From Promethearchaeota archaeon (GTDB lineage: Archaea > Asgardarchaeota > Thorarchaeia > Thorarchaeales > Thorarchaeaceae), in assembly GCA_014728035.1 (NCBI GenBank), contig WJMJ01000065.1, forward strand, positions 1 to 26,817: a stretch of DNA of 26,817 nt, in the 5' to 3' direction. The notes below the pieces were generated by a model. The model saw only the letters and a program-made list of their open reading frames with translations. It made no database searches and had not been told where the DNA came from. Positions within the stretch are counted from its first letter, which is position 1; each line of letters starts with the position of its first letter. Both the position numbers and the translations under genes were made by a program. Of this stretch, positions 13,803 to 16,800 are shown in pieces.

Positions 13803-16800
13803 ATGAAGATAAGATTGATAGCTTCTCTTCTGATTCTCTCATTGGTTCTTAATCCACTGATTTTTGCAGTTACAGCAACTCCTACATTTCAGCTCAACTC
13901 AGAAATGGATTTGGACAACAGAGCATCGAGGATGAATAATAATGGATATACAGTGAGGATTCTCTATAATCAGGATGATACTACGAGTGTCCGATCTGCA
14001 AGAAATATTGAACACCAATTGACAAAATCAGATCTCATAGTAGAGATGACTCCAGTCACAGACTCAGATAGCCTCGTAGAAAATATGAAAGATTCCCAGA
14101 CCATAATATACGTATTTCACGGAGTCCATGCAGGTATCTGTATTGGAAACGATATCCTACCTTGGAGTGAGATGAATGAATATACCACTGAGTCCGTTGT
14201 GGAGCACCATGTGTTTCAAGTCTGTCATTCAAGTGTTCTAGATGGCTTTTCCAATAGACACAATATCCACACACTTGAAGGTGCAGTCGATACCGATATT
14301 GCTCTCCTTGGTGCATTATGCTCAATCTACGAGATTGTAGATGCAGCTGGACCACAATACGAAAAGATAGCTGACTCGCTCTTTGAAACAACTTCATTCT
14401 ATCTATTGAGTAACCTCAACAAAATCGTTCAACGTTCATTCAATCCTCAGGAGACCCTTGATGGATTCTACATCGATTATGGTCAGGATGAAACAGATGC
14501 CAGAGGGCCATGGGGATGGATTGTTGATGTGTTCATGAGCCTTCTGCTAGTAACCGGGTTCACAAGCAATGACTGGTTTAGTAGCAATTCCACTCACATT
14601 ACGGTTGACGAAGATAAGGTCAATGGTGGTTCTACTGATAGGGGATCAATGGAGATGGAAGACATGGGGAATGGAGATAGTGAAACAGGAGAGTTCCCAT
14701 TCGATATCCCACTCGACTTTGATGTCGACCCACGTATCGGAACTGGTCCATGGTATCTACCAGACTATGTCGATCTTGTCTTCACGATAACTGCAGAAGA
14801 TGGAGCACTTGACCTTGCAGAAGTCATAGGTCTCAAACAGATCATGAAAGCTGCAGGATATGGTGTATCACTCACTCTTACACCCAAACTCAGTGCTACT
14901 CTTCGGATAGGGAACTTTCTCCAGCAGATGGAGGACGCCAATCCTGCATTGGATGGGAATCCATTCAGTTTCATGGGAGGCTCGCTCTCAATAGAACTCG
15001 GATTTGAACTCGGAATTCCACTAGCCACATTTCTGGACTATCTGATTCCAGGAACTGGTAAAACTGTGACTACTATTATGGACCTTCTGAACATGAAGGT
15101 CAACCTGGTCAACTACCTCTCACTAGCTCTAGGCATGAGCTACAATTCAACAACTGAAGCATCCCAACAGGATGTCACACTCAAGGTAGGATTCGGATTA
15201 GATATCTCACTGAGTCTACCTTCACCAGCATCATACATCAAGGATGCAATTGGTATTAGTCTCCCGCTTGATTTCATCAAACTAGGCGTGAAGCTCAATG
15301 CTAAAACGGGAATCCTGGCTCAGGCTTCCTTTGGTCATAAAGGAGACTCATTCACTGTAGGTCTCTTCTACAAACTCTATTTCAAATTCTATGCGTCACT
15401 GTTCTGGATTTTCAAATTTGATATAACCAAGAATTGGGATGATAACATTCCGTTTGTGTCTATTCAATCACAGGGAAGTAGTAATCCACCAACTGAAGAC
15501 CATGCGAATCTCGACCTGGATAATGACGGGCTCTGGGACGAGCTAGAACGAAGTATAGGGTTGGACCCAACCCAAGCAGATACTGATAATGACCTCGTGA
15601 AAGATGGAAATGAACTGTTGAATTTCTTCACAGATCCTTTGGATAATGATACGGATGATGACGGTCTCACAGACTACGAAGAATTAGCTCTCTTCTATGC
15701 GGCAGGTCTTGACCCTCTTGCAGACTATGATAATGATGGTGAACCCTGTATCATTGACTATGACTCAGACAATGACGGTCTCAATGATAAACAAGAACTG
15801 AAAGGCATGAGTAGTGCTTATTGGATGGAAACTATCAAGACAAATCCATCGCTACCTGATACGGACTTTGACGGATTTACTGATTACGAGGAGTGGGAGT
15901 TTGCAGGTCCTGCTCTGGAACAACCACATCCCGACCCGAGAAAGAAAGACTCTGATAATGATGGACTTCTCGATCAATTCGAGTATGATTGGTACGTCAA
16001 CAATTATGGAGTTCCATTCCCGGTTCTAAACATTCTAAATGATGATGTTGATGGTGAAGGACTACTTGATGGTGAGGAGTATACGTACAATACGTCTCCA
16101 ATAGATATTGATACTGATGGAGATTATGATTGGAACGATGACAATGTGATAAACTCCACTGAGCAAGCGGCAGCGGTCAATAATGGGATTTACGGTGACT
16201 TCACTGATTATGGTGAGGTTAATGGAAACACATGGTCTCAATGGCCATTTGGTCTCGATGATTGTAAACCCAAGAACCCTACACCCACAGATCCATTGAG
16301 TAATGATACTGATAATGACGGTGTTACAGATGTGGCAGAATACACTGCTGGAACATTACCAGTCGCCAATGACCATGATGGTGACGGTCTATACGATGTT
16401 GCAGACTTCTTCACATTCAACGCAAACTGTTCAGAACCGGATACTGATTTTGATGGTATTCGAGACGGTGACGAAGTGAACTATTTCAACCTCACGAGGG
16501 GAATCATGAATGAAACCATCGCAAGTCTTCATTATCTAAATGACTCTGATGTGGATGATGATGGCGTACTCGACGGACACGAACTGCGTATCGGAACTGA
16601 TCCTCTTAACAACGACACAGATGGAGACTTCCTGCTTGATGGAGAAGAATTAGAGATAGGCTCGTATCCCCTAATCCCAGATTCAGATGGAGACTCGCTA
16701 TTGGATGGGATTGAAGTTCATGACCACAATACAGACCCACTTCGACAAGACACCGATAATGATGGCCTGGATGATGCTACAGAAGTAGCTGAACAGAGTC

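Follow-up and report, generated by a model that had tools for sequence, protein, structure and literature searches.

A candidate clan-CD-like cysteine-histidine domain at the tip of a giant surface protein of an Asgard archaeon

Contig WJMJ01000065.1 of a Promethearchaeota archaeon was analysed over a stretch of 26,817 nucleotides, hereafter the window, which carries one long plus-strand gene (13803..18521) encoding a giant membrane-anchored surface protein of 1572 residues. The N-terminal head of this protein presents a conserved histidine and cysteine on a predicted alpha/beta fold, and on the basis of two structure models we read it as the representative of a new, very divergent family resembling the clan CD (caspase-hemoglobinase) peptidases. 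We consider it probable, at roughly 0.65, that the head is an extracellular cysteine endopeptidase or transpeptidase carried on a Ca2+-binding stalk. In eukaryotes, caspase-fold proteases take part in cell death, chromosome separation, glycosylphosphatidylinositol (GPI) anchoring and the processing of antigens; where they arose among prokaryotes is a matter of debate. Asgard archaea, the closest archaeal relatives of eukaryotes, possess an abundant family with a caspase-fold signature that standard annotation misses entirely. The family is apparently exposed at the cell exterior on giant stalks that resemble adhesins, and is accompanied by dead paralogues.

The His-Cys head and the coupling of its two residues

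The raw sequence and its translation place His106 (codon CAC, 14118-14120) within IIYVFHG and Cys141 (codon TGT, 14223-14225) within HVFQVCHS, 35 residues apart. An earlier sequence-only reading of this DNA had drawn attention to the same pair, and its positions were correct to the base. Residues are counted here from the ATG at 13803; that reading counted from the TTG at 13743, and its numbers are therefore 20 higher. A spacing of 35 residues is short for caspases, yet it lies inside the range of clan CD. The features of the head are as follows, model 1 being the structure prediction described in the next section and pLDDT the predicted local distance difference test score.

13938..14477, plus strand: His-Cys alpha/beta domain, residues 46-225, ~180 residues (hidden Markov model envelope; profile match 13950-14477, E 1.9e-56)
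14118..14123, plus strand: His106-Gly107, where strand beta3 ends; putative general base and glycine of the oxyanion hole (conservation, model 1)
14223..14231, plus strand: Cys141-His142-Ser143, with a helix beginning at Cys141, the putative nucleophile, which follows strand beta4 (conservation, model 1)
14433..14459, plus strand: R211-SFNP-QETL motif at the C-terminal end of the domain, structural (helix, model residues 165-173, pLDDT 88-92)

A word-indexed search with residues 26-580 retrieved 20 collinear full-length homologues (38-77% identity), and His106, Gly107, Cys141 and Ser143 are invariant in all 20. The two residues singled out by the sequence-only reading also hold up in a wider set of homologous domains, 56 in number. 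Each of His, Cys, Ser143, Asp163 and Trp121 occurs in 55 of them, Gly107 and Gly111 in 52, and Pro215 in 47 of 47. In the one domain that departs from the rule, His and Cys are both lost.

A tree of 68 domains, calculated with the His, Gly and Cys columns masked, groups 13 Cys-less sequences into one clade with a Shimodaira-Hasegawa-like approximate likelihood ratio test (SH-aLRT) support of 99.8, so that the cysteine was lost essentially once. The evidence for coupling is consequently the later relaxation of the histidine and not a repeated co-loss: the His site has undergone at least eight changes among the 13 Cys-less sequences, where Asp, Asn, Gln, Lys, Pro and His are found, against none among the 55 Cys-bearing ones. 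Gly107 follows the same trend (four changes against one), and the conservation of Ser143, Ser131 and Asp59 depends on the presence of Cys. That of Arg211 does so in part, the residue being present in 85 per cent of the sequences with Cys and 46 per cent (6/13) of those lacking it; a role near the active site is possible for it. Asp56, Tyr103, Trp121, His136, Asp163 and Pro215 are retained in both groups (Pro215 in 13/13 of the Cys-less paralogues) and are presumably structural.

Because the His site relaxes in the Cys-less clade and is fixed elsewhere, the alignment indicates that His and Cys are evolutionarily coupled and work together. Such a pattern would be expected of a catalytic dyad with oxyanion and nucleophile loops, accompanied by pseudo-enzyme paralogues. 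A reading of the pair as a chance motif was rejected on the grounds of this conservation and coupling.

Predicted fold and its distance from known clan CD families

Model 1, an AlphaFold2 prediction for residues 41-300 from an alignment of 56 sequences, reaches a pLDDT of ~97 over residues 50-210. Its elements run in the order beta1-alpha1-beta2-alpha2-beta3-(His-Gly)-hairpin-alpha3-beta4-(Cys)-alpha4-beta5-three helices. The secondary-structure string places strands at residues 100-104, preceding His106-Gly107, and at residues 135-138, preceding Cys141, as had been anticipated from the hydrophobic stretches in the sequence. In a Foldseek search of the PDB, the SAVED-CHAT protein 8TL0 came top (E 3e-4, probability 1.00) and procaspase-3 next; the C11 peptidase 6N9J stood at rank 19, and azoreductases and flavodoxin-like proteins were intermixed. 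VIA-align gave Z 10.7-11.0 over 149-156 residues for 8TL0 and Z 9.2-9.6 over 136-162 residues for legumain. By these matches, model 1 alone does not separate a caspase fold from a generic Rossmann-like sandwich of strand order 2-1-3-4-5, and a member of a second subfamily was therefore folded as well.

This small subfamily consists of proteins of ~300-400 residues with a signal/anchor segment and a His-Cys domain, usually of the form YVGHG...ACxS, the C-terminal half being hydrophobic and made up of several helices. It is large, with up to about 15 matches per genome, and homologous to the window domain (hhalign E 1.8e-27). Model 2 represents a 349-residue member from another genome, predicted from a 39-sequence alignment with a core pLDDT of ~97; its strands 101-105 and 135-139 are followed by H106 and C141. 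Thus, in two independent models His and Cys stand after strands 3 and 4, with His before Cys, which is their canonical placement in clan CD.

The Foldseek list of model 2 is almost purely clan CD, comprising SAVED-CHAT, procaspases-6, -7 and -3, caspase-2, caspase-11, Craspase TPR-CHAT, separase and MALT1; although the E-values, at 4e-3 to 8e-2, are weak, the list is uniform. With VIA-align, 8TL0 scored Z 12.2 (root mean square deviation 3.4, 146 residues aligned) and the next match 10.1. A search of 48,161 chains that did not depend on Foldseek again placed 8TL0 first, at Z 11.8, followed by legumain at 9.5; over the two comparisons, 146-147 residues of 8TL0 were aligned. The clan CD entries found there, among them OaAEP1, DdvA, metacaspases, caspases, Csx29 and the GPI transamidase, align over 129-150 residues, against 107-132 for binding-protein folds. 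Both models, although taken from divergent subfamilies, rank 8TL0 first (Z 10.7-12.2), and the predicted three-layer alpha/beta/alpha fold is nearest to known members of clan CD. The aligned ranges (model 52-197 or 52-200 against 8TL0 chain 306-487 or 306-488) are compatible with a superposition of His on His and Cys on Cys, the published dyad of SAVED-CHAT being H375/C422 (bioRxiv 10.1101/2023.06.23.546230). Among language-model look-alikes, CHAT was the top named cluster (0.90) and a Peptidase_C25 cluster was also present (0.86); we take these scores as a lead only. C80 and C25 structures were absent among the fold-search matches listed, an absence that excludes nothing.

Several observations weigh against the clan CD assignment. 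With model 1, CHAT is tied at Z 9-11 with LacI/periplasmic-binding, PurE and CheY/receiver folds, whose alignments are shorter. Five parallel strands in the order 2-1-3-4-5 occur in flavodoxin-like folds too, and an antiparallel sixth strand is not evident in the secondary-structure strings, in which strand 4 is followed by just short strand elements (residues 117-118 of model 1, residues 152-154 of model 2). Nor does the His-Cys domain have a sequence match in Pfam, NCBIfam or the PDB: Pfam and NCBIfam scans of 37 homologues (E up to 10) and of the small paralogue gave nothing on the domain, and sequence searches of the PDB, started from the domain by itself, from a mixed profile and from a domain-only profile, returned noise. 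PF12770, the CHAT family, was matched neither by the protein (E up to 1) nor by the 37 homologues (E up to 10), and no PF12770 gene was found in the host genome. A profile search of a 5.8-billion-protein set for longer relatives recovered known members only and no bridge to CHAT-annotated proteins. Profile-profile comparisons with hhalign, for which the CHAT, C14, PurE and receiver-domain alignments were built from Asgard genomes, gave the following values.

CHAT against C14 (positive control): score 43.9, E 1.9e-5
Domain against C14: score 22.9, E 0.012
Domain against PurE/AIRC: score 19.6, E 0.018
Domain against CHAT: score 15.0, E 0.18
Domain against receiver domain: score 11.9, E 0.25

The scores to CHAT and C14 are not significant, are no better than that to PurE/AIRC and fall far under the CHAT-C14 control. 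The outcome was the same when the small subfamily was added (scores over both comparisons: CHAT 15-18, C14 23-25, PurE/AIRC 20-22). The best local alignments are collinear and put the Cys on the catalytic Cys of both CHAT and C14, and the His on the CHAT His but two residues off that of C14; this correspondence largely restates the motif and is not independent evidence. We therefore regard the domain as clan-CD-like on the strength of its predicted structure and the logic of its active site, and not as a member of CHAT or C14. The caspase-like domain proposed by the sequence-only reading thus finds a counterpart in a predicted fold nearest to CHAT, caspases and legumain, but no significant sequence or profile link to clan CD (hhalign E 0.012-0.18).

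The surface protein and its relatives

The ATG at 13803 (MKIRLIASLLILSLVLNPLIFAV...) is likely to be the start codon, as it opens a signal peptide, MKIRLIASLLILSLVLNPLIFAVTAT, and the resulting 1572-residue product is identical to the protein on record. A hydropathy scan detects just two hydrophobic segments, residues 2-27 and 1543-1568. The protein contains 23 N-x-S/T sequons for N-glycosylation, and Asp and Glu make up 20 per cent of its residues. Together, these properties describe a type I surface protein with the His-Cys domain at its membrane-distal tip; the extracellular position suspected earlier agrees with this predicted topology, as does that of an alpha/beta domain placed behind the signal peptide of a giant anchored protein. 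The parts of the gene outside the head are listed below.

13803..18521, plus strand: gene of the type I surface protein (start at ATG 13803; the open reading frame reaches up to TTG 13743)
13803..13880, plus strand: signal peptide, residues ~1-26 (hydrophobic segment 2-27)
14478..15512, plus strand: region between head and stalk, residues 226-570, with a GPWGW hydrophobic helix and a beta-rich segment, lacking a Pfam or NCBIfam match
15513..18059, plus strand: stalk of calcium-binding TSP3-type repeats with D-x-D-x-D-G motifs (PF18884 TSP3_bac, E 4e-11, nine stretches)
18429..18506, plus strand: C-terminal transmembrane anchor, residues 1543-1568, followed by KKRK (hydropathy scan)

The stalk belongs to PF18884 TSP3_bac with 43 bits against a cut-off of 25, whereas the likeness to the CglD gliding-motility lipoprotein (NF033765) stays below the equivalog level (141 bits against a cut-off of 400) and does not extend beyond the repeats. 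Pfam and NCBIfam scans of the protein and of its N-terminal third returned the TSP3 repeats alone and nothing on the His-Cys domain, so that a pipeline would annotate this gene exactly as the sequence-only reading had foreseen. The region of residues 226-570 is highly conserved among orthologues, and model 1 gives low confidence to its first 75 residues (pLDDT 53-78 over residues 221-300).

Two further genes of the window, an 854-residue protein of the penicillin-amidase family (1161-3725, minus strand) and a 1446-residue right-handed beta-helix/NosD-like protein (3953-8293, plus strand), suggest that the region is rich in exported proteins. Immediately 3' of the giant gene lies an 88-residue open reading frame with a GTG start (18536-18802, plus strand); it has no family match and an unremarkable sequence, and is therefore probably not a gene.

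An exhaustive phmmer search of 1.84 billion representatives with residues 26-300 found 40 clusters, most of them matching over the ~180-residue core (46-225) alone. This core heads proteins that differ widely in length and make-up and carry TSP3, PKD, Big or fn3 domains. Named members of the family come from Helarchaeota, Promethearchaeota, Hodarchaeales and Thorarchaeota, and the names of the 20 collinear homologues are those of Thorarchaeota and Hodarchaeales; the attribution of the DNA to an Asgard archaeon, made before its origin was disclosed, was thus well founded. With a domain-only profile, the family was detected in 84 of 201 sampled Asgard genomes and 39 of 59 genera, at up to 15 copies per genome. 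In one homologue of 1799 residues (P0005), methyltransferase domains (PF13847 and PF08241) precede a head at residues 273-527; this arrangement is probably a merged gene call and not a real fusion.

The same profile finds four copies in the host genome. That of the window gene has His and Cys intact. Two giant TSP3 paralogues of 1563 and 2161 residues (contigs C5:8687-13399 and C125:28289-34774) have lost both residues from their heads, His being replaced by Asp or Gln and Cys by Gly or Ala, and both fall in the 13-member Cys-less clade, which is spread across many Asgard genomes. The fourth copy (contig C44:177743-178900) is a membrane protein of 374-386 residues that keeps FIGHGN...LLACDSD and has a hydrophobic C-terminal half; a 740-residue gene product with a response regulator is encoded ~1.6 kb downstream of it. 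The genome bin has an estimated contamination of 8.5 per cent; the family is nonetheless well represented in related genomes. The host genome also encodes a conventional orthocaspase-type C14 protein (contig C25:288120-288548, 285-residue frame, E 3e-16 to PF00656). The His-Cys family is therefore additional to the recognized caspase homologues and does not replace them. Literature searches combining Asgard with caspase, CHAT or clan CD found no paper on this family.

Proposed action, alternatives and known systems

Catalysis, substrate and direction of action are what we infer here, next to the sequence, topology, conservation, coupling and predicted fold likeness observed above. The N-terminal ~180 residues of the mature protein would constitute a minimal domain of the caspase-hemoglobinase type; among solved structures, the CHAT protease domain comes closest to it in predicted fold. 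His106-Gly107, where strand 3 ends, and Cys141, where strand 4 ends, would form a cysteine-histidine catalytic dyad. Exported by the signal peptide, the domain would be held off the cell by the calcium-stiffened TSP3 stalk on a single C-terminal membrane helix, and it would probably act on external or adjacent surface proteins, or possibly on other members of its family. Since the same head occurs on unrelated bodies, and Cys-less heads persist on the same type of stalk, the distribution suggests that the scaffold recognizes an external partner and that active versions, in addition, cut or ligate it.

The sequence-only reading had suggested another direction of action as a possibility, namely self-cleavage, for example near RSFNPQETL. 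The head would then resemble the cysteine protease domain (CPD) of MARTX and the large clostridial toxins, a clan CD domain that processes itself; it would cut its own chain, for instance after R211 or in the linker of residues 226-300, and thereby be released or matured. Its place at the end of a giant exported protein, the better retention of R211 in company with Cys and the poor order of the segment that follows are all consistent with this scenario. We nevertheless consider it unlikely: R211-P215 lie in the confidently modelled end of the domain (the helix of residues 205-213 and what follows it), P215 shows no variation even among the dead paralogues, no C80 structure occurs among the fold-search matches listed, and the downstream parts (PKD, Big, fn3, multiple transmembrane helices) are unrelated, so that no common cleavage segment is evident. 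The RSFNPQETL site itself was rejected as unsupported, the motif being part of the fold.

Rather improbable, in our view, is a non-catalytic binding or structural head of generic flavodoxin/periplasmic-binding-like fold, with a metal or cofactor bound by His106 and Cys141 and perhaps also by His136 and Asp163. The LacI/periplasmic-binding, PurE and CheY matches at Z 9-11, the lack of a significant profile link to clan CD and the presence of four conserved potential ligands would suit such a head. So would the persistence of Cys-less paralogues at the same position on giant proteins, from which it follows that the domain has some role independent of the dyad. What speaks for an enzyme is that the non-clan-CD folds align over 107-137 residues compared with 137-162 for the clan CD matches, and that model 2 puts CHAT more than 2 Z above them. 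Moreover, the loss of His106 and Cys141 leaves His136 and Asp163 in place, which is not how four residues of one site would behave, and the Gly after His and the Ser after Cys co-vary with Cys, as for an oxyanion hole and a nucleophile loop. Harder still to credit is that the caspase-like scaffold carries a different thiol chemistry, for instance that of an amidase, an acyltransferase or a deacylase whose substrates are lipids or surface polymers other than protein. A Cys-His dyad alone does not specify peptide substrates, and with so much divergence specificity cannot be carried over to this family; against this, the characterized enzymes among the clan CD fold matches are, to our knowledge, peptidases or transpeptidases. 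Finally, and as a frankly speculative extension to which we attach very little probability, the family could be Asgard's own large, unrecognized set of outward-facing clan-CD-type enzymes, active and dead versions on calcium-binding stalks or multi-pass anchors, working as surface transpeptidases in the manner of sortase, legumain or GPI8 to attach or remodel surface proteins. Were this true, its members would be candidates for archaeal antecedents of the eukaryotic luminal clan CD enzymes legumain and GPI transamidase.

An extracellular endopeptidase or transpeptidase head, if active, would represent a new class of archaeal surface enzyme that could influence how Asgard archaea make contact with other cells, live in syntrophy or scavenge protein. 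Its small size (~180 residues) makes the head a concrete target for expression and structural work.

Among known systems, the CPD domains (C80) were the analogy chosen by the sequence-only reading, as clan CD autoprocessing domains within giant exported proteins. They differ in being internal and activated by inositol hexakisphosphate inside the host cell; they are not among the fold matches listed, and nothing in the protein described here points to a toxin. The gingipains and PorU of Bacteroidota (C25) provide a precedent for clan CD enzymes on the cell surface in which His and Cys lie close together in sequence (about 33 residues apart in RgpB), and a C25-annotated cluster is among the language-model look-alikes; their secretion and anchoring systems are different, and no C25 structure appears among the fold-search matches listed. 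Caspases, metacaspases and orthocaspases (C14, PF00656) share the fold class and the order of the dyad, and many caspases align at Z 8.6-9.3 over 137-147 residues. C14 is also the best hhalign partner (23-25, Cys on Cys), yet this score is not significant, and the head differs from C14 in lacking a p20/p10 organization and in its shorter His-Cys spacing. The C13 enzymes, which comprise legumain, the asparaginyl ligases and GPI8/PIGK, belong to clan CD, act on the extracytoplasmic side and show that the fold can ligate as well as cut. Legumain (Z 9.2-9.6), OaAEP1 (9.1) and PIGK (7W72, 8.3) resemble the models but remain below CHAT; a sequence link was not found, and the residues of Asn/Asp specificity are not identifiable in the domain. 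CHAT (PF12770), with SAVED-CHAT of Haliangium ochraceum (8TL0), Csx29/TPR-CHAT (8D9F, 7Y9X) and DdvA (8RW5, 8ROT) as examples, remains the best structural match of both models, over 146-156 residues. The head is smaller (~180 residues against ~290) with a tighter His-Cys spacing (35 against 47), and whereas CHAT is a cytoplasmic, sensor-coupled protease, the head is predicted to be extracellular, N-terminal in the mature protein and mounted on a TSP3 stalk. What the two share is a histidine that precedes the cysteine, each of them following a hydrophobic strand.

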